In this document: in pieces, positions 28,301 to 54,875 of the stretch
Layout: the number at the start of each line of letters is the position of its first letter
How positions within the stretch are numbered: the stretch's first letter is position 1
Assembly (NCBI GenBank): GCA_964372775.1
Contig: CAYJRJ010000003.1
Span: 1-55,585 of the forward strand
Length of the DNA stretch: 55,585 nt
Origin: an uncultured Planctomycetales bacterium
GTDB lineage: Bacteria > Omnitrophota > Gorgyraeia > Aquiviventales > Aquiviventaceae
Reading direction: 5' to 3'
Notes under the pieces: generated by a model
Databases searched by the model: none
What the model was told of the DNA's origin: nothing
What the model saw: the letters and a program-made list of their open reading frames with translations, nothing else
Position numbers and translations under genes: made by a program

Positions 28301-31300
28301 ACGGAGGACGCACCATGCGCGCGATGCGCTGCACCATACCGCTGATGCCGATCCCTGAACGCGGCTCGAGCCCGGCGTAGCGGTGGCCCCGCGCGGTGGA
28401 GTATCCGAACAACAAGTCATGGTGCCGTGCGCCGCGGCCACGCCTTGCGTTCGTAGGTGCCTTGGGCAGCGCGAGGCCGAACGCCCGAGCGGCCTTATAG
28501 AGGGCGCGATCCCCGTCCTCGGCGGCGGGTTTCCGCAGGGTGGCGGCGTTGTTCGCGAGGCCGGCGGTCTCGCGGCGGGCGAGCTCGGCCGTGACCGCGG
28601 CAGCATCGGGGTACGTGACGATTCGGCTACGCGGCCCACCCACCACGTCCCGCACCACTCCTTCGAGATGGTATGGAATCCTGCCTTGCTCGAGTTGGGT
28701 ACGCAAGAAGTCGCGCAGCTCACGTCCGTCGGCCTCCAACTGATAGAAGGCTAACTCTAGGCGCCGCGGCCAATCCGTCCCGGAAGGTCGAGCGAACTCC
28801 CTCAAGAGATTATCAACCGCCCGCACCAGTGCGGGTCCCGTGAGACGGCCTCCCACCATGCTTCCTGACCCAAAGCCCCGGCGCATCCTCGCGGCTCGCT
28901 GCGGCACGCCACCAAAGCCGATCCCTGAACGCGGCTCGAGCCCGGCGTAGCGGTGGCCCCGCGCGGTCCGATCAACCAGACGGCCGAGTGATAGCCTGTG
29001 GTAGTTCGCGGAGTGAGACGGACCTCCGCGTGTTGGATCAGCCTTCGCTCGCAACGCGGTGAGCCATGCCTCCGCCGCGCGCGCGAGACCGTTCGCCCGA
29101 TCAAGCAGATGGTGAATGGTGTGGGTCGCGCTTTCATCGGAAGGCGACGCGTTCTTTCTGAGACGTGGCAATCGCCGCGCAAGACGTCGGGCCACCTCCC
29201 CTGCGCCATGAGCCAGCTCTTCAACATTGCCCTGTAATGCGGCAAGCGCGTACGAGGATTCTGTTGATGAACGCACGTGTGCGGGCTGCTTCGGTTGGTG
29301 GAACAGATCGGCATACCGCCGTTGAGACCGCTGCAGGGTTTCTTCCGCCAGCTCAATCAGCTCCTGAACTTCTTCAAGAGTCTGAATGCGTTGATGCGCC
29401 GTAAGCTCTCGCTCACCCGCTTCATCTTCTGTCGACTCGTACGCTCCCCTGTAATACCACACGATCCGGTTAGCTGCGACGAGCTCGTCACTCGCCGTTC
29501 CCATCTCGCGAGCAAGCCCCCACAGCATGTTGGCGCTCGATCGCACGCTTGGCTGTGCGGGCTCGCCGGCGTGCTGGGGTGCGGCGGGCTCAAGGAGCGG
29601 TCGGCTGAGCCACCGGGCGATATTCACGAGTTGAGGTGCGGTCCAGTAGCGACGAGTGCGTGGGAGACTGCGGAGGTATACGGCCGCCATGCGCTCAGCT
29701 TTCTGTCGCACCGCGGCTTGACGATCGTCTGAGAGACTTCCGCGTTCGAGCGCATACGCGATCTCAATCAACACACGGCGCAGCACATCATCAGCCGCAC
29801 GAGCGTCAGTCTCCGCCATGCGGAATGTGGATTGCACCAGTCGTTTCGTCAACTGCGCCGTCACATGATGCTCGAGCCGACCGTAAGACGCCCCGGGTAC
29901 CAGCGGCCCGCCGCCAAAGCCCAGAAACTCAAGCTGCAGTTGCGTGGCGCCTGCCGGAGCCGGGAGACGGCGGAGGAGCCGAACCGGACCGAAGTCTCGA
30001 TGGCGCCACACCGATGGCGCTGGCGGATGCTGTACACGCCGCGCGTGACGTCCTGAACGGCTCTTCGACACCCCAAACCCGCGAACACCAGCCCGGCCGA
30101 GCAAACCATCAGATCCTCCCACGCCGAGACGTCCTGCGTACAGGTGGCCGCGGCCATCGAAGCGTCGAATTTGATTCAGTGAGGGATCGTGGTGACGGGC
30201 GAGACCTCTCGGTTCGCGTCCCGAACCGTGCAGCGGACGCCGGGCCAGCTCGCCCAAGGTGTCTGGAATGTCCAGCGCTTCCCACGCCTGCGGGAACTTG
30301 GCGCTTCCAACATCGATGGTGAACACCACATCGAGGCCGACGTCAGGATCCAGGACCCGCACCTGTCCAAAGCGGTCCGCGCGGCGGTCATAGCCCGTGA
30401 GAAACCGTGCGGCTCTGATGAACGCCCGGTAGAGTGCGCGGCTGATCCTGGCGTCGGATCGCTGACCAGCCCGCCCCTGCACCTCGCTCAGCGGAGGCTC
30501 GAAGAACAGCCATCGCCCATCCGGGGCGTACACGCCACGAACCTGGTGCTCATGTGCCGCCTGGCGGCGGCCGAACAGCTTGTCATGGGTGATGCCGCCG
30601 GCGTCGAACCAGGCGTGGTCGTCATGCTGCGAATCAGCGATGATGCCTATGGCCAGGCCCCAATCTTCATCATCCAGACGCCGATCTCGAGTGACGGCCC
30701 GATCTATCGCCGCTTTGGCCTGTGTCCGGTTCCGGTAATACCGACGCGGAAGTTCCTCGTGGGCCCAATGCGTGGAGGCGATGAGCAGCGGAGCCGCTGC
30801 GGCGATGCCAAGCGTTGCAAACGCCGCGTAGGCCAGCGATGAGGCGAACCACAGCACGAAACCATGGACGAGCTTGGAGCCCCACCCGCCCGTCCGCTTA
30901 GACGGCGTACCCCCTCGCGGCGGCAAGAGTCCGATCCCCACCGCCAGCGCTTCAAGAACCTGCTCAGCGTAGCGCGCGTCACCATCGAACTGTTCCAACA
31001 GCGCCGCGCGTTCCGCGGAGTCCGTGGAGAACAACATCTCGATGTGCCGGATAACCTCTCCGGCAGCCACCCAACGCATGACCTGCGCCTGCTCGATTGG
31101 GCTTAGGTAGGACCAGACGAACAGCCGTTGAATCGCCGGCCACGCTCCGCTGGACGCCAACGTGCCGTCCGTCACGCCGGTTTCATCTTCGTATTCGACA
31201 GACACGTTCACCCGGTCATCATCGGACCACACCTGGGCGTCCTCGACCCACAAGAGGCGGGTCGGCTGATCCGACAGCTGCTGGAGCACCTGCCAGCGCT

Positions 31301-34300
31301 CACTCAGGAACCTCAACAGCACCGCGGCGGTATCGGGCAGGGCGAACTGCAGCACAGGCGCTTCAAAGGCATCGCGAGCCGCGTCATAGGCCTGATCGAA
31401 TTGACCCGCCGCCCTCGAAGCCTCTTCCCATTGCCCTTGCTTGAGCGCCTGGAGCATCCGACCCAGGTGCTGCACGAGCTTCTCGTAGGGCAGCGCATCC
31501 GGCAGATCCAGGTGCACAAGCTCCAGTTGGCTCTGGATGGTCGTCGCAAGCCCGAGGAACGCGCTGCCGACGCTGCGACCATACGTCACCTGCCAATTCT
31601 GCGGCGGGATACCCGGTTCTTCCGCGACAGACTCGTCCGGCTCCGCAGCAACCGGCTCCGCTGGTGCGGACGGCATCTGAGACGCCCGGCGCAGTAGCGC
31701 ATCGTAGCGGTCTCCCACCGCCCGCTCCGCATCGGCTTCCGAATCAAACACACCGCCGGCGAGCTGCTCCACGATCTGTTGCGTAATGTGCTCAGGCGTA
31801 TCGCGCGGCAGCAACTTGCGGACCGTGGCCTCATCCAGCTCGATCAGTTTGCGGATACCAGGTAACGACTCGATCAGCGGCAGATGGCTTCCGCCGATCA
31901 CCACCAGCACCTGGGACCTGCTTGGAAACTTCCCAAGCGTGGCGCGCAGCGACTCAAGACTCTTGCGATTGACGACCCTGGCGACCGTCTCCATCGTTGC
32001 GAGCCGCAGTCTCCCGTAGGCCGCCGGGTCCTCCTGACTCAGACGATGGACGCGCCGCATCGCGCCCCGGACCGCGCGCCACGGCAGATGTGGGGCGACC
32101 TGCGTGATCGCTTCGCGGGCCGCGTCGTCGTCAGCCAACCGCCAGTCAAGATCCCCTTGCCCCCGCAGCCGCCCCATGTCTTCAGCCAAGCAATAGCTCC
32201 AGGTGCCAACCGTCTCAATCGGCGTCATGCCTGCGAAGCCTTGCTCGCTCAGCCGCCCAGCCGCTTCCTCATAGATCGATGGGTCATCACCCTCGTACAC
32301 ACTCGCCGTGCCCACCGGAATCGCCAGCCGCTGCGCAATGGCGACCGCGTAGCGCACCTCGGGCGGAGCCAGCGTCAGGTTGTCCTTGATGGGCGAGTAG
32401 CTCTCGATGGCCACCACCCAATCATCCGGCGCGTCAACCATCTCGGGTGCCATCACCTGCCGGATCCGCTCTGTCCCCTCGATGGAGAAGTAGTCCCCAT
32501 GCAACACGTGGATCACTTTGTCCCCGTAGCGATACACGTCAAGCTGTTGACGTTGAACGGGCGGGACGATCGTCCGCACGCCCAGCTCCCGCTCGAAGAG
32601 CGGCCCCTGGATCTCGCTCAGCAGCCGCTGCGCTCGCGGATCCCGCGCCGCCGCGCCGAGGCTGCGGGGCGGCTCGCGGGTGGCGCGCAGCAGACCCACA
32701 GTCCCATAGCCGTGGTGATCGCCCTCGGTGATCTGCTGCACGCTGAATCCGGTATCCTCCAGCCGCTCTCGTGACGCCCGCCACGCCAGCTCCTGTTCCC
32801 CGTGGAGAGTGGCGCCGGCCATGCGATCGAGCGCCGTCGCCCCTGCCTTGCGCGCCACCGCCTCGTCCATCCACTCCAACAACTTCTTGGCAGGCGCCGC
32901 CCCAGACGTTGGGCCGGCTGATGTTGGACCACTCTTCTTGGCGACATACCCCTGCTGGTCAATGGCCAACGTGAAGTCTGGTAGCTCGACGGCCGCCACG
33001 ATCTCCTCCTCGGAACGGTGCGTGCGCGTCTCCGTCATGTACTCGTCCACGAGGGCGCTGACATGCTTGGGCCCATCGGCGACGCGTTGCGTGAGGTCGG
33101 CGGCGAGCTCGCGCAGCACGGAGGGGCTCATCCAGATGGTGCCGTTGTCCGGCTCCTGCTGAATCCGAGTCACGCGCACCACGTCCGGGGACTTACCGCT
33201 GAACCAGATCCGGTAGGACGTCTTTCGCTCCTCCCCGGTTATCACTAATTCGTGGAACGGGGTGCGGATGGAGGAGCGTTCCGGCAGCTCACCCTTGACT
33301 TTCTCGATCAGTTCGTAGTGGTCCTCCGTCCAGCGGAGCCATCCCTCCTGCTCAAGTGGATGGTTGGCGCCTAAGCGCCGATGGAGCACCACTCCCCGCG
33401 GGAGGCCAGACCACCTCGGTCCACGCTTCGGCCTCTCCGAGCTGCGCCGAGTTGGCATCGCCGTCGGGGACTCCACCGTGAAGGATGAGATGGCGAGCTG
33501 CGAGCTGATACCGGGCTGCTGCGCGGCGAGCTCAGCCAGCTGCTTCTGGTGGCCCTGCGCCGGCGCTTGCCGGCTTCGTTCCCAGCCCTGCACCCCACCT
33601 ATGCCGATCTCGAAGAGGCGTCCGAACTGCTTCTGCGTGAGCCCAATCGCCTCGCGCAGCAGACGCACCCGACGATGATACTCCGGCTCCTCGCGCAGCA
33701 ACACCGCCAGCGATCGGCCGTGGAGGATGTGGGTGACCTCAAGGCTCGGCCCAAGGTGCTCATTCCCAAGGTGCTCACTCACGAGATCCACCAGTGCGCG
33801 CAGCGCCGGCAGCCGGAAGGAATAATCCGTAACCCATCCGCCGCCTTCCTGTTTGATCAACCCCTCCGGAAGGGGCACTTCCGGACCCAAGGCTTCCACA
33901 ATGGCATCGAGCCGCTGATGAACGGCTGATGGGTCATCGCCAACGATCTCCTCGAGCCTCCTGATGAGCGCCGGCGCCAGCATCCCAACGGCGGCATCAA
34001 CCAATCGACGCCGCTCGAGCCATCCAGTCCGTCCTTCTGGTTGCGGCGTCCACGTGGGCGGGGGCTCGTAATACGCAGGGTCGGCGAGCCACGAGAGCAT
34101 CCACGCGTCGAGTCGCTCCGGTGAGACGTCGCCCTTCAGTTCAGCGACGCCGATCCGAGCGAGCATGGCTTGCTCCCGCTGAGTCAGCAGCGGACCGCGG
34201 GATGCGAGCGTCACACGCCACCGCTCATCCAGCGTGCCGTCCGGCTGGGTGAAGTGCGCGAACACCGCATAGGCCTCGCGCAGCGCCGGGTGGTGCGAGG

Positions 34301-37300
34301 CGATGTCCAGCAGATAGGACCTGAGGTCCGCCGCGCCCTGCGCCTTCGCCAGGTGCTGCGTGTAGCGCCATTGGAGCGCATAGGCCTCCATCTCATTGTG
34401 GATGCGCATGGCGACACTCTTCTTGAACTCGTGGCGGCGATGCGACTCCAGCTCCTGCGGCGGGATGCCCTCAGGGACACTCGGCAGCGCGCGCAGGATC
34501 GACATCGACGCGTCATCGCGTCTGACCTGAGCGCGACTGAGGTGGCTTAGCTCATGCACCAGGTGCGCCTCCACCTCCGCCTGCGGCAGGCCCTCGAAGT
34601 TCGCCAGGTTCACGTAGAGGGATCGGCTCTCGAGTTCCATCGCCAGGAAGGATTTCGAGATGAGCCTGGCGTCGAACGACAGCCGGGGACGCCGGACAAA
34701 TACGCGCAGCAGCTCGAGCAGCTCGTCCGTCTGTGGTGAGCGCGGCAGCCAGCCCTGCTCGATGTTGGCGATCGCGCGCGTCGCTGCGTCGAGCAGGTTC
34801 GCGCGGGCCGTCTGCTCCCGGTCCTCAGCCGCCGTGGGAGGCGATGCGCCCAGCCGTCGAATGATCCACCACCCACTCGCCGCCACCACGAGGGCGCCTG
34901 CGCCAAGACCGACCCACTTCAGGGCTTGCCGGCGCGTCAGACCCGGCGCGCCCGTTGCGGCGGCGCGCTCTCGTCGGCGTCGCTGGGCCCGCGTGTCCTT
35001 CGCTGCCCCGCGGCTCTTCGAGGGCCCGCCCCGCCGGACCCCGCCAAACCCAACTCCCGAACTCGGGTTCACCGCCTGCGCATACGGATGACCCCGGCGG
35101 CCGAGGACGCGCTTCGCTGAATCGTAGTACTGCGCGCCGCCACTCGGGCCGCGGCCGCCCAACCTCCCTCGAATTCCCGGCGTCCCTGAGCCGACGACGG
35201 GACTCAAGAGGATGTCGACAACCTGATCGACCTTCAGGTCCGTGTCCACTCCCTCCAGCTCTCCCACATCGACGCCACCAACGAGCACTCGGACGCCTGC
35301 TCGAAGCCGTTCATGGCCGGGCAGCCCTGTCACCAATTGGTCGCGCAGACCTGGCGCGTACCGATCCAAGCGCTCCAAGAGCTGGCGAAGCGTGCCCGCC
35401 GTAAGGTGCAGGACCCGCGCGCCATTTACCCACCCAGCCAGCGCGGCGGACAGATGCACCTCGATCGATGGTCGTCGGGCGAGCACATCCAACAGCCGGT
35501 ACTGCCGCCACAGCAGGCTGTTCGTCCCCCAGTGCTCTTCGACCGATGCGTTCGCGCGCGCCGCCATCGCCGCGGCTTCCTGGGGCTTGTCCAGAATCTC
35601 GTTGATCGCGCGGGCCGTGTCCTCAATCGATCGCGGCCGATCAAACTGCCCGGTCTGGGCATCGATGCCGACGACGTAGCCGGTGCCATGCTGCGGGTCT
35701 TGCCGAACGTCAATCACCTGCGAAGCCAGAGCGCCCACCCCACTGACGATGACCGGCTTGCCATGCCACATCGCCCCAAGTGCTGCAAGCCCCGAGCCTT
35801 CATTGAGCGATTTCAGGACGATCGCCGACGCCGCACTCTGGAACGCGTTCACCTCCAAGTCGTGCAACTCTCCGACGGTGAGTTCGTCGTAGCCCATCGC
35901 TTGCGCAGCGTCCGCCTGGGCCGCTGAGGGATTCGTCAGCCGGCCGGGATTGATCTGCAAGCGCAAGAGCTCCGCGTGCAGACGCACCCACGCCCACAGC
36001 AGCGCCCGCCGGGGCGAGGCTGGCAACAGCGGCACGACGAGGATGTTCTTCGTGAGCGAAGCCGGCACATGGGCCGCTTGGAGCCCGTCCTCGATATACG
36101 CGCGCAGCTGGCGCAGGGTCCTAAAGGCGTGCGCGTCATCGGGTGCGAGCGGCAACGTGAAGACCAGCCGCGGGAAGGCGTGCGGCTGCTTCCCTGGATC
36201 AAAACGGGCGAGGCGACTGGCCATCACCTGCAGGTAGGCATCGACCACGCCGAAGGGATCCCGCAGCACATCTGGGCGCGCGTGCTGGAGGATCAGCGGC
36301 CGATCAAGCGGCACCTCGTACTTGTCGAGCGTCGCTTCAATGAAGGCGTGGTCCAGCGGCATGTTGCGCGTCCCGTTCAAGTCGATCCCGGGCGAGACGT
36401 CCCAGTGCGAAGCCATGGCGTCCGGCGGGAGGAACTCGGGGCGGTAGACGGTCACGGCATCATACTGGTTGATGAAGGGTCGCAGGATACTCCAGGCGGA
36501 ACGGCTAGGATGCAGCGGCTCATCGCTGATTGCCGTGGCCACATTGCCCTGCCAGATGAACTGCGTCTCAGGAAACACGACGCGGAGCAGCTCGATCATC
36601 CCGGCCGGCTGGTGATCATGGATGACGATGACATCGGGAGCCGGCAGCTGCCGCCGTTCCTTCACGTCGAGGAGCGCTAAGACGTTGGCCACTTGCATCC
36701 GGCGCCAGAGATGGAAGTCACCGTCCGAAAAGCCGTCGGGCAGGCCCTGCAGGGCACGAGTCATCCGGCCCGTGACGTCATGGAAGCGCTGGTGGCGATC
36801 GGCTCCCATCACGAACCACCGCATCCGCAGCCGACGCTGCGGACGCATCTGGCTGAGCGCGTTGTTGAGCGCAATCAGCGGTTCGAGTTGATCCGCGACG
36901 CTGCCGCCGGCCCCTGAGGAGTTGAGGTGCCAGACCTCGACGTGCGGCTTGCCCCGGCCGAGCAGTGGAGTCACGCTGCGCGCGCGCAGCGCCAATCGGA
37001 CCATGCGCCCTACCCCGACCAGCCGACGCCATATGGCGAGATCCGCGTACGTCACACGACGTTCCTCGATGGGTTCAAGCTCCAAGTCCTCCGAGGGTTC
37101 GACGAACACGCCCGGGCGCGCCCGCAGCTCGACCAAGCGCCGCTCGGTGGCCAGCTGGCGCAAGGCGAGCTCCACGTCCACAGGATCCATCCGACGATGG
37201 AGCCGCTCGCTCAACTGTTGCGCCACGACATGAGGGGTGTAGGCGACCAGCGGCCGAGTGGTCAGGAGGGAGAGAATCTCGTCACGTAACTGTCCACTCG

Positions 37301-40300
37301 GCAGCTCTTCTTCGGGCACGACATCAGTGTCTGGACTGAGGAACTGGAGCGATCGCAAGAGGAGGTAGACCTTGCGCAGGCGGTCTTCTGGGGTGGGCGG
37401 GGAGTCCTCAGTGAGTGGGCGGGGGGATCGCAACATCTCCGCCACGGGACGCAGGAGATCCTCCAGCGCCTGGAGGACCTGTGGGGCGTCCGCGGCGCCA
37501 TGCAACCAGTCGTGCACGATTGGCGGCGCGCGCTGCTGGAGCTGGGCGCGGCTGAGCCCCTCGACCTCCGCGAGAATCGCTTCGAGCTCCACGCGGTCGG
37601 TGCTCAACACATCGACGAGCAACGTCTGGGTGTCGCGCGCCTCGCCCAAGAGCCTGCGCACGGCGGGATGCGACAGCAGCGTCTGAATGGTCTGCGCACG
37701 CCGGCCCACAATCCGCAGCATCGCGGGATGACCGCCGGCCGACGGCACCTCCACCACTCCTTCTGCCAGGGTGAGCGTATCGGGATGGAGCAGGGCGGCG
37801 GCAAATTGGTCCACGCGCTCCGGCGCAACACTGCTGGCGATTGCGAGGGGAGCCGCGCGTCCTTGGGTGTGGCGCGCGAGCATGAGACTCAACCTCATGA
37901 ACGCCGAGTCCGCCCCAGGATGCGGCGGTGACCAGGTGTAGAGCGCGTGCCACAGCGCCTCGGCGGAGGGATCCATCGTGACCTGCCCTTCGCGCAGTTG
38001 CCGAATGAGGCCGTCGAGGAGGTGGCGTGTCGGTGGCGTCCACCACCGCACCCACTGCGCTTTGGTTGCGGTTAAGAGATCCAGGAAGACCGACCGTTCC
38101 TTCAACGCGAGTCGTCGCCCCATCCACCACTGTCCGAGTCGCTGCGTGAAGGAAATCGGCGGGCGATGCAGCGATGGCACCTGTCCGGCGTTCTCAAAGA
38201 ACGCGTCCACCAGGTGATTGACCGTCCGCGGCGCGGTCCAGAACACGCCATGCCCCGCCCTCGGTACTTGAACAAGACGAATGCGATCCCCAGGATTCGC
38301 CTTCGGCGCGCGCTGTTTCAGCGCCTCGATGAGCGCGCCATGCCACGCGATGATGGCGGGATTGCCGACCAGCGTATCCTCGTCACCGAGGAGGATGAGG
38401 AGATTGCTGGTCTCGCCGATCGTCGCCGCGAGCTGCTCGGGCGCCCACTCGGCGCCGGCGGCCAGCATCGCCTCATACGCCTCGACCACGATGTGTGGCT
38501 GGACCCGCTCAAAGATCGGCCGCAGGTGTCGCTCGTAGACCGTGGGGTCGCCGGCGTGCAAGAACCGCCCGTACACCCATCGCGCGATCCATGCCTGCGC
38601 GATGATCACCCGCCGCCACACCACCTCAAAGAGCCCGAACCGATGCAACGCCAGCACCAGGGGCCTGATCGCTTTCGTGAGCCGCCGTACCGTTCGTTGA
38701 CCCAGGATCATATCGCCTGCCAGCGCAGGCGTGGAGAGCACCGCCGATGAGATCCGATCCGGCACCAACTCCCACAAGGCCAGCGCCGCCATCGCACCCA
38801 TGCTGCTGGCCATTACGCGCACCGTCGCACCGGCCGCCACTTCCTTCACCATGACCGACTGCGCATCGCCGGCCACCCGCTGGAAATAGTCGGCGCGCGT
38901 CGCCTGACCCAAGCTCGAATGACCATGGCCCCGCAGATCCACGGTGATGACCCGCCAGCCCTTCATGACGAAGTGCTGGACCTGGTGGTACCACACCGTC
39001 TGATCCATGAGATAGCCGTGGAGCAAGAGAAGCGTGGGCTGGTCGCGATCCTCCGGGCCGAAGACGGTATAGTGGATGGCAGCCCCGTCCGGGGCCAGCA
39101 GCACTTCCCTGCGGCTGGCGACAAACAGCTCGTGGCCAAGCTCAGCCGCCGAGCCGAATCGCACCAACTGCTGGAGGGCCACGCGCACCGCTTCGAGGGG
39201 CTCGTGCAAGGCATGCGCGATGGCCTCAGCGCTGAACACCTCATCGCGATGGCCCGCGAGGAACGCGTGCACCTGCTCGACCGGGGGTGCGACCGCCAGC
39301 GCGGCCTCCTGGGCCAGAAATGCGGCGTGCTCCTCTTGGGTGATGTCGCCCCCGCTGACCACAATGACGAGCCGCTCGCTCTTCGCCAGCTGCTTCTCGT
39401 GCACCGGATCCAGCAGCGCGGCTAGCGCAAGCGCGCCGCGCGGGGGAATGCGCACGCCGGCCTCTCGCCACAACAGCTCCACGGCCTGGCGCACGGACTC
39501 TTTGGAGACGGTGATGATCGGCGCGCCGTGCGCCTGGGCAAGTGCCGTGGTCCACGGGTCGCGCTGAGGGTTGCCTGCCAGCTCCACTCCAATGAGCTGC
39601 CGACGCTGCCCTTCCAGCGCCACGGCGATCCCTGCAAGGTTAGCGCCGGTCTCGACCGGTATGACGAGCGTGTCGAACGTCGGGACCTCTTGTTCAATCT
39701 CCAGGGCGAGTGTGCCTCCCCCCATGATCCGCTGCTGATCGTCGGGATCGAGGAACACACTGTTTGCGGTCGTGAAGGCCGCCTCAACGGCGCGCTCGCG
39801 GGCCTGCCCATAGGAAAGGAGCGGTGCGTCCTGCACATGGGTGATGAGCGTGGCTTCAAGTTTCTGCACGCGCTGGGCCACTCGATCATCGAGGACTGCG
39901 GCGGCATAGATCCGAAGCCGAGCGTGGAGCTGGCGCGCCGCCTGGGCCAGCGCCACCGCCTCGTCGCCATCACGGGCCACTGCGACAACCGTCGTCCGAT
40001 TCCAGGTCACCGCCTCGACGCCGCGTCCCAATTCGATGAGGCGCGCGAGCGCTCCCCGCATCGCAATGGAGCCGGTCGGCAACTGGTCCTCCCGCTTGAG
40101 CCACACCTCCCGACCCAGAAGCGCGCTGAGCTTCTCCGAGCGAACGATCGGGCTCGGCGTTGCCAGATAATGGCCAAGCTGGTCCCTTGCGCCTTCCAAT
40201 GTGGCTCGAGTGATCGCAGTGCCAGCGACGGAGTTGCCACCCTGGACCACCGGCGGTACCATCGCAAGCGAGAGCCAGGCCGCGGTAGCCGACGCCCCGA

Positions 40301-43300
40301 GCGCCCAGTGGAGCACCCAGAGGAGTCCGATCGCCAACGTGATCACGGCTGCGACACCAGCCTGCAGCCGCTCCTCGCGAATCTGGTCGGTGAACGTCCG
40401 CCGCATCTCGCGCCACCAGGAGCGATCCAGCGCTCGACGTGGCGAAGTCGCCAGCGCGATCAGCGTCGCGAACGCATACGCCCCGATCAGTTCCGTCACG
40501 CGTCGGGCCTGTCGCAGCATTGCGCGTATCTCATCCAGCGCACGCGCCTCGACCTGGCTCTGATACGGCGCATCGAGGATCTGACTGAGCTCGCGCTGTG
40601 AGATGGTCGGTACGTAGGTGCCCTGCGGCTGGTCCTTCTTCCCTGCGACGGACGCACCGAGGGCCTCGAGCCGGTAGATGACCCATTCGTGAGCATCCAG
40701 TATGTCATCGGGTTCGGCATCCCCCGTCATCCTCACCAGTTGATAGCCGAGTGCTTCCACCTCACGCAATGCCGTCTCCGTGCGCAATCGCTCTCCTGAA
40801 TCTCCGTCATCGTACCAACCCACAATCAAGTAGCCTCCGGGCACCAGCGTCCTGACGACCTCGTGCACGATGGCCTTCTTTTCGTCGCCCGTAATGGACG
40901 GGGCGGAGAGGACGCTCATCATGACCACCGCGCTCAGCGAGTGGTCCGGCAGCCCGCTGCGCTGGAACGCCGCATGCGCTGGCGACGCTTGACGGCCCTG
41001 CGCGCCTGTGGTATCGTCGACGATACGGAGGACGTGATCCGATGCCAAAGAGCGCGGTGAAGTTATCGACGAGGCAGGCCCAACGGTTGCTGGAGCAGCT
41101 CCCACCGGTCGTGAAGATTCATCTGGTGCGGCGCTGGGAACAGCAGACGTGGCCTGTGCGGTTACGCCAGCTCTTGGCGCGGATCGATCGACGCCTCGCA
41201 ACGTCTCCTGGACTTGCCCGAACGGCGCGGAAGAGTGTGGGCCCGGCTCGTCGGGCATTCCATGCTGCGCGCCGTCATCGACACTAACGTTCTCTTGAGC
41301 GGCTTGTTGGGTGGCCGCACGCGTCCTCTCCTCGGTGCGTTGATCGCCCGTCGGTTCCACCCGGTGGTCTCCCCCCTGCTCCTCGAAGAGTTGCTCGATG
41401 TCGTGAGTCGGCCCGCGTGGCGTCGTCTGCTCACTCACGCTGATCTTGGCGACTTGCTGACGATCCTCCATAGCGCGACTGCGCTCGTCATCCCCACCGA
41501 ACATCTCACGGTCTGCCGCGACCCCGAGGACAACGTCCTGCTTGAGTGCGCCCTCGCCGGTCGTGCCGACTTCCTCGTCACCGGAGACAACGACTTGTTG
41601 GTCCTCGATCCCTTTCGCGGCATCCGTATCCTGCGTCCGCGCGAGTTCCTCACGCTCCTGTCCTGACTTCGCGGCGGGCGCTGGCGCCGGCTCGTGGGCC
41701 GGGGCTGGCCCCGTCTCGGGAGTCGCGTCAAACGGGGCTGGCGGCGGCTCTGATCCAGAGCTGGAGCGCGTCGGCGGTTCGCTCTGACGAGCTTTGGGGA
41801 AGCCGCTGACGGTGATCAGCGTGCCTGTGGTGACTCCACTCGACGTATGTTCGCTCGGTTGCGGCTCGAGCTCGCCAGCTCTCCGGTCGCTGGCGCGGTA
41901 CACCACCCGTTGCCCCAGGGACTCTACCGAGAAGTCCAACCCATTCGCGTTGGCGGCCTGGCGCGCCAGCGGCAGCCCAAGCCCATGCAACACTGAGGGC
42001 CCGCGGGTTGAGGTCGTGGTCCCAACCGGCATGCTTCGCGCAATGTCAGCGATCCCTGGCCCTAAATCCCGCGCGAGAAGCTCGAAACCGCGTCGCCCGC
42101 CCTCTTGCTGCTCACGGATGAGGATGAGACCTGGCCCGCGCGCATGCGTGAAGTTCTTCGCGAGCTCGCCCGCTACGAAGCCTGGCGCATCCCCGCTGAG
42201 CCCCAGGCTCTGCGCAAAAAGATCCACAGCCGCCAAAATTTCCATCGCCCGCTGATCTGAGCCGTCAGCGGGATAGACGCGATAGCCGAACTCCTGTTCG
42301 AGGCGCGCCCTAGCAGCGGCGACCTCCTCAGATGTAGCCACCGGGGGCAGCAGCGTATCCATCAGCGCACGCGCCTCGATCTGGCGCTGATTCGCGGCGC
42401 GTGAGGAAGCGCTACCCTCAGAGGCCAACAAAAATGCGGCGAGCGCCTCATCGAGCCGTGTGATCGCATCGGTGACGGCGCGCCGCTGGGCGTCGGCGTC
42501 ATCGCGCGGCGCGCTGAGGAGCTGCTGGAGCACCTCGAGGAAGCGATCGCGCATCGCGTCACTGACCGAGGCATCCTCACCCCACCGCTCGCGCAAGGTG
42601 GCGGCGAGATCCTCCACCCCCACACGCCAGACATGCGGCGGCTTGTCGGTCATCAGCTCATACAGCATGTGAGCTAATCCGTAGGCCCAGCTGGGCGACC
42701 GATCGGTGTTAGCTACGTAGTCAATGAATCTCATGGTTGGCGAAGCGGCTTCCCCGGCGACGAGCACATTTTCGATCTTCGGGCTGAAATGATGAATGCC
42801 AGCTGATGCCACTTCGCTCATGCCAAGGGCCAGCTCTCGCGCCAGGCGCATCCGATCCGCCCAGGAGGGCTGTGTGTGCGCGATCCATTGGTCCATGGGC
42901 TCGCCGTCCACCCACGACCAGCGCAGCAGCGTCCAGGGGCGGCGTTCTTCTTCCATATCCTCATGGCGCCTGAGCGCGTCACCGGTGTAGTTCTGCGCCA
43001 CCAGCATCGTGTGGCCCGCTTTCCGATCGTCGGCGCGCACATCGAGCGGTTCGGTCGCCTCCAATACCACAAGGCGAGCCGGTGGCGGCGTCAAACGCCG
43101 GCGCACATCCGCGACGCGCTCGGCGCTGAGGTCTTCGTGCGGCACCTTGGGAATTTTGCCGAACCACTGACGGCCCTGCGCATCCAGCAGGACCACTTGC
43201 ACGCTGTTCATCCGCGCCCCGAGGACGTCGAGCAGATGGTAGCCCGCCCGCTCAAGCGGCGCGCGCAGCACGGCCTGCCACGCCGCACGCTGCAGCGGCA

Positions 43301-46300
43301 TCGGCGGCAGAGCCATCGCGCTGACCGGCGTCCCGGACGCCTCGCGCAAGGCGCGCCAGGCGCGCAACTCGATGAGCGCTTGCCCCATCGCCGCGCGCTG
43401 CTCGATCACCGCGTCAGGCGGCAGCGCCATCAGCTCCCACAGCAGCTGCGCGAGCGCTGCGCGTTCGGCATCCGTAACGGTCGGATCAGCGCCCCACCGC
43501 TCGCGCAAGGTGGCGGCGACATCCTCCTCACCCACGCGCCAGACATGGGGCGCGCTGTCGGTGAAGAGCTGGTAGAGCATGCGCGCCAGGCCTGAGGTCC
43601 AATGAGGGCGCGTGTCGTCGTGGCCGATATAGTCAATCTGCAGAAGCGACATGCGCCCGTGCTGTTCGCTGACGAGCACGTTTTCCATGACGGGGTCATT
43701 GCGGCGAATCCCGCGGCCAGCTAGGGCAGCGGTGGATGCGACGAGCTGTTCGGCAAGCTCCAGGCGCTGCATCCACGAGGGCTCGCTCGCCGTGAGCCAT
43801 GCATCGAGCCGCTGGCCGTCCACCCACGACCAGCGCTGCACGGTCCATGGCCTGCTTTCGTCGTCCATCCGCTCCTGGCGCCTGAGCGATTCCCCAGAAT
43901 AGTTGTGCGCAAGAAGATGCGCGTGACCCGCTCGTCGATCGTCGGCGCGCACATCAAGCGGCTCCACCGTCTCCGCCGGCACGATGTGTGCGGGGACGGG
44001 CGTCAACCGTCGCCGCACCTCTTCTACACGCACCGCCGAGAGATCCTCGCGCACACCAATCGGAACCTTCCCGGCCCACACGGTGCCGGCCGCATCGCGC
44101 ATCCGCACGACCACGCTATCCACCCGCACGTCCGCCACCCATTCAAGGTCATAGCCCGCGCGGCGCAGCGGCTCGCGCAGCACCAGCAACCAGGCCGCTT
44201 GACGGAACTCTTTCGGCGGATTGCGGCCGCTCGGCGGCAGGCCGCCGAGACCAAGCGCTAGAGCCGGAACCAGACTCAGCCATGAGACGTCCGTCGCTGA
44301 TTCCTGAGCGATAGCAGATATCGTCTGTGAGGGAACGATATCTGATATCGAGGGGAGGGCGGCTGCCGCCGAGGCCAGAGCGAGCGAGCCGGCCAGCGCC
44401 GCCGGGGCGAAGAGCGCGAAGACGCCGGCCCGCGTGCCACGACCACGGCCCCGGCGATCGGACGCGCCTGGTGAGGAGCCACTTCGGCCGGTCGGACCGC
44501 CTGGCATGGGGGCCGCCCAGCGCTCCTCGGCGTAGTCTTCAATCATGCGGGCGACGCGCTGCGGCCGCTCTAACACGAGCACGTGCCCGTTGAGCATCCG
44601 GCCCGGATTCGTGAAATACTCCCAGGGAGAGTTGATCTCATCGGCGATGGCCTGCGCCTGATCGTCCGGGATCAGCGCATCACCTTCGACAAGCACCGTG
44701 ACGACGCGGCGGCCCGCGGAGTCGTTGTTGAACTTACGCATCAGCGGACGGGCCCCGAGGAACCGTTCCCACAGCTTGGCCTTCAACCAGATGTAGACCG
44801 CCGCATCGATCTCCTGGCCAATATGCCACGGACGGAACGTGCCGCCTGATGCTACCACCCGCCTCTGCGCGATCTTGAGCAACGGCTTTGAAATCAGGCC
44901 AGCGGAGGCCAGAGGCGCCAACATGCCCAGCCACCAGGTGTCCGGGAAGCGTGCTTTGGTTTGCTCGCGGACCGTATCCGCCAGCGCGAGCCACCCTCGC
45001 ACCACCAGCCCAGGCACGCGGCTCTGGATCGCCAGCCACGCGAGGGGATAGGGTTTTGCCAGCAGGACAAGTGACTGAAGCGGCGCTTTCAAGAGCCGCT
45101 CGAGGAGTGCCGGCCCAGGCACCGGCAGCGCGTCAACACCAAGTTTGACGACGCTGTGAAAATCGCTGATCGACATCGACGGATCAAATGGCGTGATCCG
45201 CATCACCCCGCGCACCAGGTGGAGCACTCGATCCTTGGGGGCAGCCGCGTCATCCTGGAGCACGACTTCCTGCCAGATCGTGTCGGCGATCGAGTGCGTC
45301 ACCCAGAGGATGCCGTCCTCCTGACCGAACCGCTTGATGATGGCCCGGCGCTCCTGGGCGTAGCGCTCCATCAGGTGCAGCCGGGATTCCTCGATCGTGT
45401 CATAGGGGGAGCTGCGTCGAGGGGCGATGACGGTGTAGTCATCCTTCAGGAGCTCCATCACCAGATCCCACGAGAGCTGGCCGGCCGCCCCGTGATCAAG
45501 TCCGATGACCGGCTTCCCTGGTTTGCCCTTTCGAAAGTCCACGATGACTTGGCCGACAATCGCGCCATGGTCGTCCAGGACGTCCACGGGCTCGGTTTCC
45601 CAGGTCCGCGACTCCTCATCGAGGTAGAGCCGTACCTTGTCGCGGCCGAGTTTCTCGCCCAGCTCGTGGATGATGCGCCCGGGCGTCTCTTCCACCGAGC
45701 CCTCGGGAGCGAGCACGCGTCCTGCTGCCATGCGCTTGTGCTTGATCAGCCCGCCTGTCACCACCATGATCGCCTTGCGGGTCCTCAGGAGCCGCCGTCG
45801 CGAGGCGGTCACGCGCACGGTGCCCGACTCATCGACCATCACGCCGTACGGCGGCACGTCGCGCCCCCTGCGCAGCAACGGATCCCGCGGGTGCAGGCTG
45901 GCGGTCTCCCCTCCCTCGCCCAGGGCGAGGAGTGTGAGATCCATACGGCGCCACCCGACCTCTTCGCTGTAGCGCTGCGCTTCCTCCTTGGCGTGGCGCA
46001 TTGCCGCACGCTGGGTCTTGAACGACCCCCTTAAGATGCGATGGACCTGCGGCGCCACAGGGAGCTTGGACAGGAAGGTCTCATGAAACACGCGGTAGTG
46101 GCTTCCCGCGTGCGAATCCGGCACCATGCGCTCATCGGTAAAGTAGATCTCCCACTTCGACCAGTCGGCGTCACGGGTCGCGAGCAACGCATAGATCGGC
46201 GCAAACGTTCGGCCGCTGGCGATTTGGAGGCGGAACACGCCGCGCGCGCGAATCGCCTCGTCGGCCGCTGTGGTGATGTCATCCACCACATCCCTGGCGA

Positions 46301-49300
46301 CCTCCCGCCCGTGGAGACGTTCCTGCACGCCAAACGGCAGTTCGTACCCGCCATTGCCGTTCGAAGCCTCAGGCGCCGGCGACTGGAGTCGCGGGCTGTC
46401 GGAGCGGGAAATCCCCAGCGGGAGATGGAAGCGCTCCTGGATGATGTAGAGCGCGCGGACCAGATCGGGAAGACCCACCGCGTTAGGCGCGCGGGGTTGG
46501 ACGACGTACTGCAGCAGCCTGAACAGGTGCAGGACCGCCATCGCCATCGGCCCAGCCACAGAGTAGGCCACGATCATTGCGCTGAGGTACTGGCCCTGCT
46601 GGACAAGGTCGATTGGTGCGCGCCAGGCGTGGCCGAGCAGTAGCAGACCCGTCAGCCCAATCCACGCCAGCGGTGCGCTGGCGGCCACGAGGAAGGTCAA
46701 CCACGAAGTCGGATGCTCCGCGATCCAGCGGCTCTGGACATAGGAGCCGGTTGACGACACAAGACTGCGCTCCACCGGCACGCCGAGGGCGACTGCGACC
46801 ATCTCATGCAGGGCCTCCTCGATCCAACTGAAAGGCAGGAGGAGCGCCATGGTGGTGGGGCTGTGCATGTCGGTTGACGGACCGAGCGAGGGCGCCTGGT
46901 AGTCGCGCGGGCGAAACGCCGGCTCTTCCATGACGCGTTTGAGTTCCCGTTTGACGATGACGGATTCACGACGGGTCAACGGGCGGCCGCCACGTGTCAG
47001 GTACAAGGAGTTGTCCGCCAGCCCGCCGCGCCACCAGTCATGCCGCGTGATAGGGATGATGTCTTCCACATTGAGCCCAAACGAACGCAACACATGGAAG
47101 ATGCGCACGAGCAGGCCCGGGTAATCACCGGTCTCCATGTCCAGGCGCGTCCAGCCGTCGTTCCGGCGCATCCGGATGCGCGTGGATGCCAGGCCCTCGG
47201 GACGCGTCATCACCCGCGGCAGCACGTCCTCGATGGAGCGCGCGCCGTTGAGCAATTCCTGCAACTGGGCTTCCAGGTCCTCGACGCGGCCCACACCCTC
47301 CGCGCCCACCCGCGCGGTTTCCACGGCGAAGCGGATCAAGACCAGCGGTTCGGCTCCCCGCGGCGGCCGCTGCTCGATGTGCGGATGCATGTCATGCACG
47401 GTCAATCCCCACCTGTACAGCAGGGCGATGACGGCGTCACCTAGGCCGGGCCTGTCACCCCGCAGCACCACCACGAGCTCCGAGATGCCTCTCGGATCCG
47501 CCGACGGACGAACCGCGAGCACCGCAGAGAGACCGCCGGTAAGCAGCCGATGGACGAGGCGAACCTCCTCCACATCCTGGCCGCGCCGGCGCAGCGAGCC
47601 GGGATCGTTGGCCACGAGATTCGCGTAGCGGCGCGCGGCCTCCGGTGAGACATCAGGCGCGACGTCGTGGAGCACGGCAACCATCTCCCGCATCCGTTCG
47701 CTCCTGCGCGGCACCCAGGAATCCGGATCCGCGACGGCGGACGCATCGATGCGGTAGAGTGCTTGCAGCTCCTCGTAGATCGGCACCGCAGCCACCCGTC
47801 CACGCTGGCCGTCCACCGCGGCGATGGCCAAGAGCAGCATCGTCCGGTCGAGGTTGCGCCGCATGACGGCGTTCAGGAAACGCACGACCGCCGCCGGGGT
47901 GGCGGTGTTGACTTCGCGGCTCCAGGACTCCAGCAGCAGGAAGTGCTCCACCGCCCAGCGCACATCCGCCCCCCGGCCCCGGTCGGACGCCAGCCCGTAG
48001 CGGGCCAGCAGGTCTCGCAGAAACGCGCGGCGGACCTTCGGATGACGCGCCGCCGTCACGGTGAAGAACAACACCGCCAGCCGCAGCGGCACCCAGAGCC
48101 GTGCTCCCGCCGCGCGGATGCGACGGAAGACCGGCGCAGTGCCGAGTTTCATGGCCCGCTCATCTGCCCGCAGCTCTCGGGTGTGGAACCACAGCATCCG
48201 CTCCAGCAGGCGGACGTCCGAGAAGATCTGGGCCCCAACGGTCGCTCGCCGCTGCCGGTCAAATGTCGGCATGTACTGGACGGCATCAAACCCTGGAATA
48301 AACTCATCCAGGATGCCGATGACTTGCATCCGCCGCAGCGTGTAATACAGCGACTCGCGAGCCGAGACCAATTGCACAAATTGCCGGTAGCGGGCCGCCG
48401 CGAAGTTCGCATCATGTCGCATGGTCTCCTTGAAGGAGCCCGCATGCTCCTGCAGCGCATCAAGCAGATCGGGTGCGAGCCGCAGGTTGTCGTGGGTGGG
48501 GTCGGCGGTCAAGAGCAACAGCTGCAGATAGAGCTCAGGATGCTGGGCCAGCGCCGCCGGATCGGCACCACGGTCCAGCGCCACTTCGTAGCGCTCCTGG
48601 TAGCTAAACCCGTCTTCGAGCGTAAACAGCCAGCCGGTGCGCTTGATCAACACGAATCCCTCTGGCATACCCTCACGCGTGACCTCCTCCACCGCGGACG
48701 GCGAGGCCTGCTCGACCGATCGGCGGATCACCTTGTAGGTCACCAGGAAGAGGGCCTCGGCATGCCGGTAGTAGTCCTCCATCAGCGCCGCCGCCGCATC
48801 CTGATCCCGGACCCGCTGATACGCCGGCAGCGCCTGCGCCACGCGCACCTGCAGTTCCCTTGTCAGCGTCGTGCCGAAGCCGCCCACCGCTTCCATGGCG
48901 CCGCGCACCTCTTGCAGGAAGTTGAGGGCGCGCTCCGCCTGATCAATCTCCTCCTGCCGCAGCAGACCGCGCTCCACCAGCCCCATGAGCACCGGCTCGT
49001 GAATGCCCTGCAGCTTGGCGAACCAGCGGATATAGTCGTATTCCCGCAATCCGCCGGGGCCTGACTTCACATCCGGCTCGTGCGCGAAGAGCTTCCACAT
49101 GCCACGCTGTCCGCTCGCATCCGGCCCTTGGTATCGCTCGCTCCATTCCTTGGACAGCAGCTCGATGACGCGCCCGCGCATGGTGGCCCCAGCCAATCCG
49201 CTCACCTGAGGCTGGCTTAGGAACTCCTGCCACTGTTGCCGTCGAGCGTTGATGAGCTCCCGATCACCGGCCACGTAGCGCATGTCCTGCAGGTGGTTGA

Positions 49301-52166: not shown

Positions 52167-52238
52167 CGCCGCCGGCGCGGGAGTGGTGGAAGCCGTCAGC
52201 GGTGTCTTGGCTTCGCCTTCAAGCCTCCGGGCGAGCGC

Positions 52239-52267
52239 TTGACGCGCAGAGTCCTCTACGGTATCCT
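52239..52267 (+). promoter_or_regulatory. Cassette 1 promoter TTGACG-17-TATCCT
   Basis: Counted directly. AGGAGG at 52275-52280 follows. Confidence 0.5.
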
Positions 52268-52292
52268 TGACCACAGGAGGTTGTGTGCCACC

Positions 52293-52556
52293 GTGCGACG
52301 TGTTCAGATCTGGTGGGATGACGAGACGGCGGAGCACCTTGCCAGGCACGGGGTGGCGCCAGAAGAAGCGGAAGAGATCTGCCGGGTGCGCCCCTACATC
52401 TTGCGTACGCGGCGGGGCCGTTACCTGGTCCTTGGATACACTGGAGCGGGGCGATATCTGACTGTCATCTTGGAGCCAGTGGGAGGCGGCCGGATGAAAA
52501 TCATTACGGCGCGAGCGATGACGCCGCCTGAACGCCGACGGTATCTGGAGCGTTAA
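52293..52556 (+). CDS. brnT: BrnT-like (DUF497) type II toxin
   Basis: VRRVQIWWDDETAEHLARHGVAPEEAEEI...GRYLVLGYTGAGRYLTVIL...KIITARAMTPPERRRY. Taken with a GTG start; an in-frame TTG at 52281 is an alternative. The ORF track frame is 52131..52556. Confidence 0.7.
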   Translation: MRRVQIWWDDETAEHLARHGVAPEEAEEICRVRPYILRTRRGRYLVLGYTGAGRYLTVILEPVGGGRMKIITARAMTPPERRRYLER

Positions 52557-52559
52557 CCC

Positions 52560-52793
52560 ATGAAAAGTCATATTCCAACGTTCAAATCCTTGGACGAGGA
52601 GCGCCGATTTTGGCAGACGCACGACGTCACGGAATTCTGGTCTGAACTGACCCCGGTGACTCTGAAGTTTGGAACGTCCAAGCGTGCGCGGTCGATTCAG
52701 TTGACCGTCGTTGAGTTGCGCGCCCTCCAAAGCCTCTTGAGGAAGCTTGTGACCGCTGAACGACCGCCTGCCGAATCCCACCGGAAACTGTAA
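52560..52793 (+). CDS. brnA: BrnA-like antitoxin
   Basis: MKSHIPTFKSLDEERRFWQTHDVTEFW.... It starts 3 nt after the brnT stop, in the toxin-first order typical of brnTA. Confidence 0.7.
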   Translation: MKSHIPTFKSLDEERRFWQTHDVTEFWSELTPVTLKFGTSKRARSIQLTVVELRALQSLLRKLVTAERPPAESHRKL

Positions 52794-52799
52794 TCCGAA

Positions 52800-53060
52800 C
52801 TGCCGCACCTCCCGCCAGATCGCGCGCCAGTCGGTCGAGCCATCCGGCGTGAGCCACTGCCGCCCGAAGAGCCGGCCGATCCCCGCAATGAGGTGGAGGC
52901 CGCTGTGGGCGAACTTCGTGTCGTCATCCGCCCATATTTTTTCCAATGTCCCGCGCAGCCAGGTCCACGCCTGCCGCGCCCAGGCGAGCAACTGCGGCAC
53001 TGATGGCACGCCGCCGTAGACGTCGCCAGTCGGAGCAGCCGACCCCGGCGTTGGCTGGTC
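52800..53060 (-). repeat. Conserved 5' coding fragment, copy C (261 bp)
   Basis: 259/261 identical to copy B. Encodes ...QPTPGSAAPTGDVYGGVPSVPQLLAWARQAWTWLRGTLEKIWADDDTKFAHSGLHLIAGIGRLFGRQWLTPDGSTDWRAIWREVRQ. Confidence 0.95.
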
Positions 53061-53079
53061 CGCCGTCGGCGCGGCGCTG

Positions 53080-53109
53080 TTGACACGAGTCGTCGACGTG
53101 GCGTATACT
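53080..53109 (+). promoter_or_regulatory. Cassette 2 promoter TTGACA-18-TATACT (CGTCGACG palindrome in the spacer)
   Basis: Counted directly. The predicted TSS is only a few nt before ATG 53120, so the mRNA is leaderless or nearly so. Confidence 0.5.
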
Positions 53110-53119
53110 TTTGGACGTG

Positions 53120-53374
53120 ATGATTGCGCGAACGAGATTGTTTCCGAAACTTCTCCAACGCGACTACGACTGGGCGTTTTCCCGCTATCCACAGCTCGCG
53201 AGACGCTACCCGAACCAGTGGGTCGCGTTCGCGAATCGCCGAGTCCTGGCTGCGGGACCCCGTCTCTCTCGCGTGCTGGCCAAAGCTCACGAGGAAGTTG
53301 ATTGGCCGCATATCCCCCACCTGTTTGTCGAGTCGGGAATCCACGTGTATCCGGTGAATGCGCATCGCGCTTGA
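53120..53374 (+). CDS. DUF5678-like small protein
   Basis: MIARTRLFPKLLQRDYDWAFSRYPQLARRYPNQWVAFANRRVLAAGPRLSRVLAKAHEE.... The ORF track frame starts at TTG 53111. Confidence 0.6.
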   Translation: MIARTRLFPKLLQRDYDWAFSRYPQLARRYPNQWVAFANRRVLAAGPRLSRVLAKAHEEVDWPHIPHLFVESGIHVYPVNAHRA

Positions 53375-53798: not shown

Positions 53799-53816
53799 GG
53801 CCCGCACCCCTAACGC

Positions 53817-54077
53817 CTGCCGCACCTCCCGCCAGATCGCGCGCCAGTCGGTCGAGCCATCCGGCGTGAGCCACTGCCGCCCGAAGAGCCGGCCGATCCC
53901 CGCAATGAGGTGGAGGCCGCTGTGGGCGAACTTCGTGTCGTCATCCGCCCATATTTTTTCCAATGTCCCGCGCAGCCAGGTCCACGCCTGCCGCGCCCAG
54001 GCGAGCAACTGCGGCACTGATGGCACGCCGCCGTAGACGTCGCCAGTCGGAGCAGCCGATCCCGACGTTGGCTGGTC
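53817..54077 (-). repeat. Conserved 5' coding fragment, copy B (261 bp)
   Basis: Exactly 1017 bp (339 codons) from copy C. Confidence 0.95.
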
Positions 54078-54102
54078 GGGTATCGCGTCCTCCTGGGGTG
54101 GC

Positions 54103-54869: not shown

Positions 54870-54875
54870 TGAGCC

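Follow-up and report, generated by a model that had tools for sequence, protein, structure and literature searches.

A 55,585-nt stretch of contig CAYJRJ010000003.1 (positions 1 to 55,585, forward strand; assembly GCA_964372775.1), deposited as an uncultured Planctomycetales bacterium and placed by GTDB in the Omnitrophota (Gorgyraeia; Aquiviventales; Aquiviventaceae), is referred to here as the window. Its minus strand carries a giant open reading frame (ORF), inside which a small toxin-antitoxin operon with a PIN-domain toxin lies on the plus strand. The giant frame passes antisense through this cassette without meeting a stop codon, and the same stop-free antisense frame recurs in the close relatives of the cassette, although their flanks are unrelated. 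We consider it probable that the cassette is a VapBC-like addiction module lying antisense within a giant multi-enzyme gene; the gene would be translated, and the antisense strand of the module would contribute an acidic linker to the giant protein.

A preliminary description of this DNA, made from the sequence alone, had placed a promoter-antitoxin-toxin cassette antisense to the giant ORF in the interval 40656-41789. The elements that it listed for the cassette, i.e., a promoter, a ribosome-binding site, an 81-aa ORF and a PIN toxin gene, are present at the stated coordinates (Table 1), and the interval does hold the cassette. However, the cassette proper covers only about 40987-41666, wholly inside the giant ORF, and the rest of the interval is made up of a methyltransferase fragment and a Pro/Ala-rich linker. 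The closest relatives of the cassette were found on five contigs from three Joint Genome Institute (JGI) samples (L001, L002, L132, L133 and L134; 53-67% PIN identity), which we refer to as the close clade. DNA homology between the window and L002 begins with GCTTGACGG at ~40987 and ends at the PIN stop codon, and the promoter element GCTTGACGG...TG(C/T)GGTAT is kept in both L002 and L133. The conserved unit therefore runs from promoter to stop codon and measures ~680 bp.

Table 1 Features of the cassette and its surroundings in the window.
Feature	Position	Strand	Remarks
Sigma-70-like promoter, TTGACG-17-TATCGT, TG-extended (upstream TG)	40989..41017	+	Left end of the conserved cassette
Perfect 14-bp palindrome, TATCGTCGACGATA	41012..41025		Overlaps the -10 hexamer; candidate operator
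GGAGG ribosome-binding site	41027..41031	+	10 nt before the ATG at 41042; read from the sequence
Antitoxin-like gene, 81 aa	41042..41287	+	26-nt overlap with the PIN start, in a different frame
PIN_3 / TIGR00305 toxin gene, 134 aa	41262..41666	+	Profile matches above cut-off
Giant-frame stretch antisense through the cassette, ~227 codons	40987..41666	-	0 stops; acidic, hydrophobic-poor, linker-like
C-terminal half of a divergent class-I methyltransferase-fold module (~200-aa Rossmann module when whole)	40659..40982	-	Motif-I half missing
Pro/Ala-rich low-complexity linker	41667..41792	-	Directly beyond the PIN stop codon
Weak GHKL/HATPase_c-like stretch	41922..42152	-	HATPase_c E=0.11, below cut-off
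Kinase-like paralogous repeat, copy B	42453..42812	-	47% identity to copy A, E=1e-30; dN/dS 0.28
Giant ORF, 'multi-enzyme' giant protein kind	19326..55583	-	At least 12085 codons; reaches the window edge

The 134-aa PIN protein matches Pfam PIN_3 (PF13470; 6e-24, 85.5 bits against a cut-off of 27) and NCBIfam TIGR00305 (1e-24, 87.1 bits against 29.15). Its 462 homologues, the best of them at 69% identity, are nearly all free-standing proteins of ~135 aa, and an alignment of 32 sequences including that of the window has D7, E43, D87, D90 and D109 among its invariant columns, which we take to be the PIN catalytic acidic site. An exact protein look-up returned no record of the window's PIN protein as a called gene. 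The 81-aa protein shows similarity below threshold to VapB15 (18.9 bits against a cut-off of 80; 1.3e-3) and to DUF2267 (24.6 against 29.8; 3.3e-5), and its counterparts at the corresponding position in L001, L002 and L134 share 55-62% identity with it. The arrangement of an 81-aa gene followed by PIN is present in L002 as well, and in L001 a gene of the same length class shares the identical 26-nt overlap with PIN. A promoter scan returned two sites of the sigma-70-like kind against 0.2 expected in shuffled sequence. After the PIN gene, no terminator was found in a consensus scan, and the hairpin fold there is no better than in shuffles (z = -1.6). The palindrome yields promoter-like hexamers on both strands; the minus-strand site that it creates (41048-41020, TTGGCA-17-TATCGT) points left into the downstream part of the giant ORF, and its -35-like hexamer is not conserved in L002 and may be fortuitous.

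In its PIN toxin with conserved acidic residues and many free-standing homologues, its small upstream antitoxin-like gene overlapping the toxin start, and a separate promoter whose -10 hexamer is overlapped by a palindrome, the cassette resembles VapBC type II modules. Two features set it apart from them: the antitoxin could be assigned to no recognized DNA-binding family, beyond the sub-threshold similarities given above, and the operon lies antisense inside a frame that stays open, which is not known from VapBC loci. Judged by these protein families and their order, the cassette is probably a type II, VapBC-like toxin-antitoxin operon, with toxicity and neutralization as predicted activities, and it is a new member of the PIN_3/TIGR00305 family.

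The surrounding giant frame truly codes for protein and belongs to the 'multi-enzyme' class of giant proteins, which was described only recently. An ORF listing gives it as 19326..55535 (12069 aa), and upstream of this the frame is still stop-free to 55583. Between 19329 and 55585 it contains no stop codon, against 290 and 302 in the other two minus-strand frames, which is the density expected at 65% GC. GC content at third codon positions (GC3) in the giant frame is 0.75-0.9 across most of its length. Along its more than 10,000 uninterrupted codons, the ORF contains Pfam domains that include GlnD_UR_UTase, Glucosamine_iso (6-phosphogluconolactonase), PALP, Hydrolase_4 (alpha/beta-hydrolase), TreT_GT1 and Glycos_transf_1. 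A GC content of 65% seems atypical for Omnitrophota. Both flanks of the cassette are coding in the giant frame, the left one as a methyltransferase relic and the right one as a pair of kinase-like paralogues. The latter are two tandem segments (42453-43724, upstream of the cassette in the giant frame) of ~47% identity, whose ratio of nonsynonymous to synonymous substitution rates (dN/dS) of 0.28 argues that the giant frame is genuinely coding upstream of the cassette; the pair also indicates an internal module duplication in the giant ORF. The GHKL module that the preliminary description had placed upstream of the cassette was not borne out: only the weak HATPase_c-like stretch of Table 1 is found there, and a PDB sequence search with it gave no match. 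Between this stretch and the PIN stop codon, the low-complexity linker contains three 17-nt repeats, 24 and 33 nt apart, and only 2% hydrophobic residues.

On the other side of the cassette, the methyltransferase-like module is incomplete. In the giant frame, Methyltransf_11 is matched below threshold (E=0.003) and over profile positions 47-95 of 95 only; the segment corresponds to residues 86-144 of TTHA0223, and the C-terminal Rossmann strands from motif II onward are recognizable. To find homologues of the module, an exhaustive HMMER search was run with 40161-40985. It returned 20 proteins, many of them 1.2-6.9 thousand residues long, which share a ~105-aa stretch at 32-42% identity. In all 16 homologues with sequence upstream of this stretch, it is preceded by a conserved N-terminal half of ~100 aa reading '...VVSVGPG...IPWE.L...GA.V.VYEP...W...'. 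Intact homologous modules match Methyltransf_11 with up to 1e-5, reaching the cut-off, and Methyltransf_23 covers their motif-I region, and the full module is thus weakly recognized as a putative class-I methyltransferase fold. Motif I would, by analogy with class-I methyltransferases, bind S-adenosylmethionine (SAM).

Of the 223 positions of a custom hidden Markov model (HMM) of the full module, only 109-218 are matched in the window (E=1e-34), and the match starts at 40982, within ~5 nt of the left end of the cassette. In the window's module, neither motif I (the GxGxG-type SAM-binding loop), whose absence had been noted from the sequence, nor the post-I acidic residue was found. A search with an HMM of the N-terminal half gave no match, either upstream in the giant frame or elsewhere in the six-frame translation of the window. 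Since 16/16 homologous modules with upstream sequence are intact, the truncation in the window is the derived state. The module had been thought to be split by the cassette, but its N-terminal half lies neither on the far side of the cassette nor elsewhere in the window; this argues for replacement, or for insertion accompanied by deletion, and the module is best described as truncated or replaced, not split.

One of the homologues is a 3378-aa protein (L003; NCBI GCA_964352425.1, CAYGRZ010000009.1, 10001-20137) with an intact methyltransferase-like module and kinase-type Pfam hits. Its gene is followed on the same strand by a Y1 transposase and then by a Gp49/HTH toxin-antitoxin pair. Inspection of the antisense ORFs of this gene, which were not scanned against Pfam, suggested no antisense cassettes within it.

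Over the cassette itself (40987-41666), the giant frame has no stop, whereas the other two minus-strand frames have 8 and 3. Relative to the giant frame, the PIN gene is antisense and codon-aligned, and the giant-frame translation tied to this stretch includes '...GIEDQQVVVSGDEEVGTTGEGALK...'. These points uphold the earlier proposal of a promoter-antitoxin-toxin cassette nested antisense in an open giant frame with its PIN gene codon-aligned. Over PIN, the antisense translation contains 17% hydrophobic residues, against 32% for the ORF body, with a net charge of -18 and a grand average of hydropathy (GRAVY) of -1.1. Such a composition is as expected for a Leu/Val-rich gene read backwards, and it fits a tolerated, disordered linker.

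Read-through is not the only way in which an open frame and a nested cassette could have come together. The cassette might instead have been engulfed without being read through. It would then lie between two or more functionally separate minus-strand genes, with the downstream part expressed from an internal start, and the giant ORF would not encode one polypeptide; its single open frame would be kept for another reason or be a historical leftover. In favor of this, the adjoining methyltransferase-like module is a non-functional-looking half, and between 40950 and 41850 the giant frame loses its GC3 signal. The minus strand has the leftward promoter-like site described above, and the ORFs downstream of the giant ORF (8.3-19.4 kb), which are over-long and overlap by 35-44 nt, suggest that gene boundaries at this locus are unusual. 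However, the upstream part alone would then run for thousands of codons without a stop, and 0 against 290 and 302 stops requires selection on that very frame. The promoter-like hexamer on the minus strand is not conserved in L002, and the stop-free continuity is found again in five other loci with unrelated flanks. We regard engulfment without read-through as unlikely.

The probability of an open antisense frame was estimated by reshuffling synonymous codons with the codon usage of the giant ORF itself. For PIN, the absence of a giant-frame stop has P = 0.196, and for the antitoxin gene P = 0.185, which gives a chance of ~0.04 for the two genes, times 1/3 for the phase. Taken alone, the cassette thus makes only a moderate case against chance. 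Over the ten plus-strand toxin-antitoxin genes of the window, the product of these probabilities is 1.6e-7.

Several of these genes belong to an array at the 5' end of the giant ORF (52040-55585), which runs off the window edge and in which an in-frame repeat unit alternates with four different plus-strand toxin-antitoxin-like pairs. The pairs are BrnT/BrnA, an 87-aa protein with a retropepsin-like 146-aa protein, and two DUF433-like/DUF5615-toxin pairs (toxins labeled by Pfam; partner ORFs recognized and labeled by reading their translations). They lie in three different phases, and the giant frame passes antisense through all four, with stop counts of 0/28/35 in the minus-strand frames. The 261-nt repeat unit is 99% identical between 52800-53060 and 53817-54077, with further copies at 52053, 54796 and 55531. 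All of its spacings (762, 1017, 777 and 1710 nt) are multiples of 3. It does not occur near the internal cassette. The internal cassette had been said to share its frame-preserving behavior with this array, which the stop counts support and the close clade strengthens further.

In all five close-clade contigs, the PIN-aligned antisense frame is stop-free as far as it could be followed, and the other two minus-strand frames hold 9-60 stops. In four of the five, the open frame spans to both contig ends; the exception is L001, where it ends at 1057. The flanks of these cassettes have no similarity to one another or to the window, and one of them encodes a bona fide TPR domain in the open antisense frame (TPR_19, 1.6e-7). 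A stop-free antisense frame is thus a clade-level and probably heritable trait, kept in unrelated flanks. In L001, the frame is open for 822 codons at 54% GC, across four plus-strand genes in three phases. We also observed in L001 (1057-3524; JGI 3300009444, Ga0114945_10020524) that the open frame crosses two pairs, AF2212-like/PemK and 81-aa/PIN, and ends in a called 307-aa gene, and that a 19-nt GC-rich repeat, CCCGCGCTTCGGAGCGG, is spaced there by 105, 630, 747 and 93 nt, all multiples of 3.

Could all this be a shadow frame of GC-rich DNA, in which codon-aligned antisense frames are often open, with the cassette happening to lie in phase and nothing being selected? An antisense stop in the codon-aligned phase requires a TTA, CTA or TCA codon, which are rare (0.9% of giant-frame codons), and the single-gene probabilities are ~0.2 for PIN and ~0.19 for the antitoxin gene. 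Furthermore, a control contig (L045, 63% GC) has a composite shadow ORF of 986 codons that arose by chance, for which reason we treat single cases with caution. Two general explanations of this type were rejected. Lineage-wide avoidance of TTA, CTA and TCA cannot, as a whole explanation, account for the non-aligned phases or the intergenic parts, and a general scarcity of stop codons is ruled out by the other two minus-strand frames, which have stops at random expectation. The comparison set was made up of 124 PIN_3 loci that are more distant (35-55% identity). Just 10 of their PIN_3 genes lack an antisense stop even within the gene itself (8/51 at GC >= 0.60), the background rate being 1-3 stops per gene, whereas the cassettes of the close clade, the window included, are stop-free in 6/6 cases. 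The length of the open frame in L001 at only 54% GC, the product over the ten window genes and the spacing of the 5' array repeats in multiples of 3 likewise speak against chance. Together, the array, the close clade and the distant PIN_3 comparison make chance untenable as an explanation of the frame preservation, and a history in which nothing was selected strikes us as very improbable.

How the cassette arrived was addressed by searching for traces of an insertion event. No transposase was found in the interval, and there are neither terminal inverted repeats nor a target-site duplication as for a transposon or insertion sequence. Among the window ORFs scanned, a non-exhaustive set, no integrase domain was found, and in six loci there is no conserved sequence after the PIN stop codon, although no dedicated attC model was run. 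Insertion, as put forward in the preliminary description, is hence supported as far as the derived truncation goes, but not by any signature such as target duplication, terminal repeats or an att-like motif. The comparison with cassette-free orthologous giant genes that was suggested there yielded no orthologue: a 1100-aa segment spanning the cassette was unmatched in a 5.8-billion-protein index, in genome contigs and in metagenome contigs. The intact N-terminal half of the methyltransferase module was nevertheless recovered in the 16 homologous modules.

The abruptness of this truncation could also reflect a chimeric junction, if mis-assembly or mis-binning had joined the cassette into the giant gene. 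Such a join would need the luck of being in frame and stop-free, there is no junction repeat able to seed it, and the same nested arrangement occurs in five independently assembled contigs from three samples; we consider an artefact of this kind most improbable.

Selection on the two strands was compared in pairwise analyses of the six PIN genes of the window and the close clade. In the PIN frame, dN/dS is 0.17-0.5, and the synonymous rate (dS) of 0.8-1.8 means that synonymous sites are essentially randomized. In the codon-aligned antisense frame of the same loci, dN/dS is 0.9-1.8. This contrast indicates that the protein sequence of the toxin is conserved, whereas the antisense translation drifts but gains no stop. 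The PIN gene, for which conservation had been named as a check, is under purifying selection, and in the antisense frame only stop-freeness is kept. That the open frame is a third cassette gene, an overlapping antisense protein of its own and not a part of the host ORF, is barely credible: no member of the clade has a stop in it, and from locus to locus its translations share 30-42% identity, but this identity is the product of sense constraint alone, the antisense dN/dS is that of an unconstrained sequence, and the frame has no boundaries of its own, since it extends past the cassette into unrelated flanks, to the contig end on every sampled side except in L001.

On the favored reading of a VapBC-like module read through by a giant gene, a recombination event would have brought in the cassette and removed or replaced the motif-I half of a methyltransferase-fold module, leaving its C-terminal half as a relic that starts next to the promoter end of the cassette. 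The event would have survived because the antisense frame of the cassette was stop-free and the join in phase. With the PIN-aligned antisense frame purged of stop codons, the giant frame would pass through the cassette, and read-through would add ~227 acidic, hydrophobic-poor and probably disordered residues as a linker between modules, in which only stop-freeness would be selected. The cassette itself may act as an autonomous addiction module and probably shields the surrounding long gene from deletion, by analogy with chromosomal integron cassettes, while being transcribed head-on against the giant mRNA. As to the direction of events, the cassette lineage may have adapted to life in long ORFs, or, just as well, host giant ORFs may engulf cassettes and then purge their stops.

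Several points weigh against this reading. We infer translation of the giant frame, including its passage through the cassette, from the absence of stops only. The cassette of the window, taken by itself, departs from chance no further than stated above, and the L045 control demonstrates that long composite shadow ORFs do arise by chance. Most of the replicate contigs are only 1.1-3.5 kb long and may come from one broad lineage, so that the stop-free frame may be a property of the cassette or of the lineage. No direct or inverted repeats and no target duplication flank the cassette, no att-like or shared end motif was found across the six loci, and the state before insertion was reconstructed from paralogous and homologous modules because no cassette-free orthologous giant gene was found.

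Two zones elsewhere on the minus strand also deserve mention. Between 28500 and 30750, the giant frame loses its GC signal by codon position (position 1 > position 3), just as happens over the toxin-antitoxin cassettes. The giant-frame translation has repeated 'RGH.YAG...GIGFGGV' motifs there, and the plus-strand ORFs of this zone of altered composition (28.5-30.7 kb) gave no Pfam match. After the giant ORF, four further minus-strand ORFs of 258, 1207, 1650 and 586 aa follow (8296-19369), and most of their junctions are overlaps of 35-44 nt in different frames, with one 29-nt gap. PEPCK accounts for only aa 120-747 of the 1207-aa ORF, and FBPase_3 begins at aa 816 of the 1650-aa ORF. These ORFs could be over-long genes that have fused, or pieces of a single, still longer frame that frameshifts have broken up.

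Giant 'multi-enzyme metabolic cluster' proteins of Omnitrophota have been described in two preprints (10.1101/2023.11.21.568195 and 10.64898/2026.06.07.730766), the second of which reports PF08241, PF02518, PF00583 and PF00534 among their content. The giant ORF of the window resembles them in that its more than 10,000 codons are tiled, in one ORF, by different enzyme-type Pfam domains (the same four families and sugar-metabolism enzymes), that transmembrane segments are scattered along it, and that its methyltransferase-like module recurs in other proteins of 1.2-6.9 thousand residues. A term search of both preprints found no 'antisense' or 'opposite strand', and toxin-antitoxin genes are mentioned in one of the two, only as flanking or cargo genes. 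Our literature searches on nested or antisense toxin-antitoxin genes in giant genes returned nothing relevant. The PIN_3/TIGR00305 family and the class of giant ORFs (2023-2026 preprints) are thus known, whereas the nested, antisense, frame-preserving arrangement was not found in the literature searched.

A parallel comes from bacteria of high GC content such as Pseudomonas (PMC8850804), in which long antisense shadow ORFs and overlapping genes likewise involve codon-aligned antisense overlap with an annotated gene over hundreds of codons; a skeptical view of such ORFs has been published (bioRxiv 10.1101/724807). In contrast to these, the long frame is here the host and the small genes are nested, the overlap recurs across a whole cassette clade including a locus of 54% GC, and the antisense side shows no amino-acid constraint, only stop avoidance.

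In chromosomal integron arrays, toxin-antitoxin cassettes stabilize the array against deletion, as in the Vibrio superintegron. The giant ORF is similar in that cassettes with their own promoters are interspersed in a long, recombination-prone array, four of them at its 5' end, and protection against deletion is the likely role in both. It differs in that no integrase or attC-like sites were seen, within the limits of the scans given above, and in that both the array and the internal cassette lie inside an open reading frame, with repeat units in frame. Inteins and self-splicing introns are a functional analogy only: they too are selfish elements in long or essential genes whose product survives, but the cassette of the window is not spliced and would be read through antisense, and it has no homing endonuclease or known insertion mechanism.

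In prokaryotes, long conserved overlaps between sense and antisense coding frames are rare, and they are contested. In the present case, such an overlap is found in every sampled member of the cassette clade, with one strand keeping its protein sequence and the other only its open frame. We see an even chance that this represents a class of toxin-antitoxin cassettes adapted to antisense life in giant genes, the host reading through them as disordered linkers, or, equivalently, giant ORFs that engulf their neighbors in either orientation while selection preserves frame continuity. In either version, part of the annotated giant protein would be the antisense shadow of live selfish genes, and the truncated methyltransferase module would be a scar. 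There is a substantial chance that this is a general and so far undescribed way for selfish cassettes and giant genes to coexist. If the giant frame is translated, selfish addiction modules can colonize very long genes without killing them, which bears on how the only recently described giant 'multi-enzyme' genes are assembled and maintained. There is a consequence for annotation, too: once a gene caller accepts the giant ORF, the toxin-antitoxin genes nested in it are suppressed, and those parts of giant proteins that have no domains may be antisense shadows.

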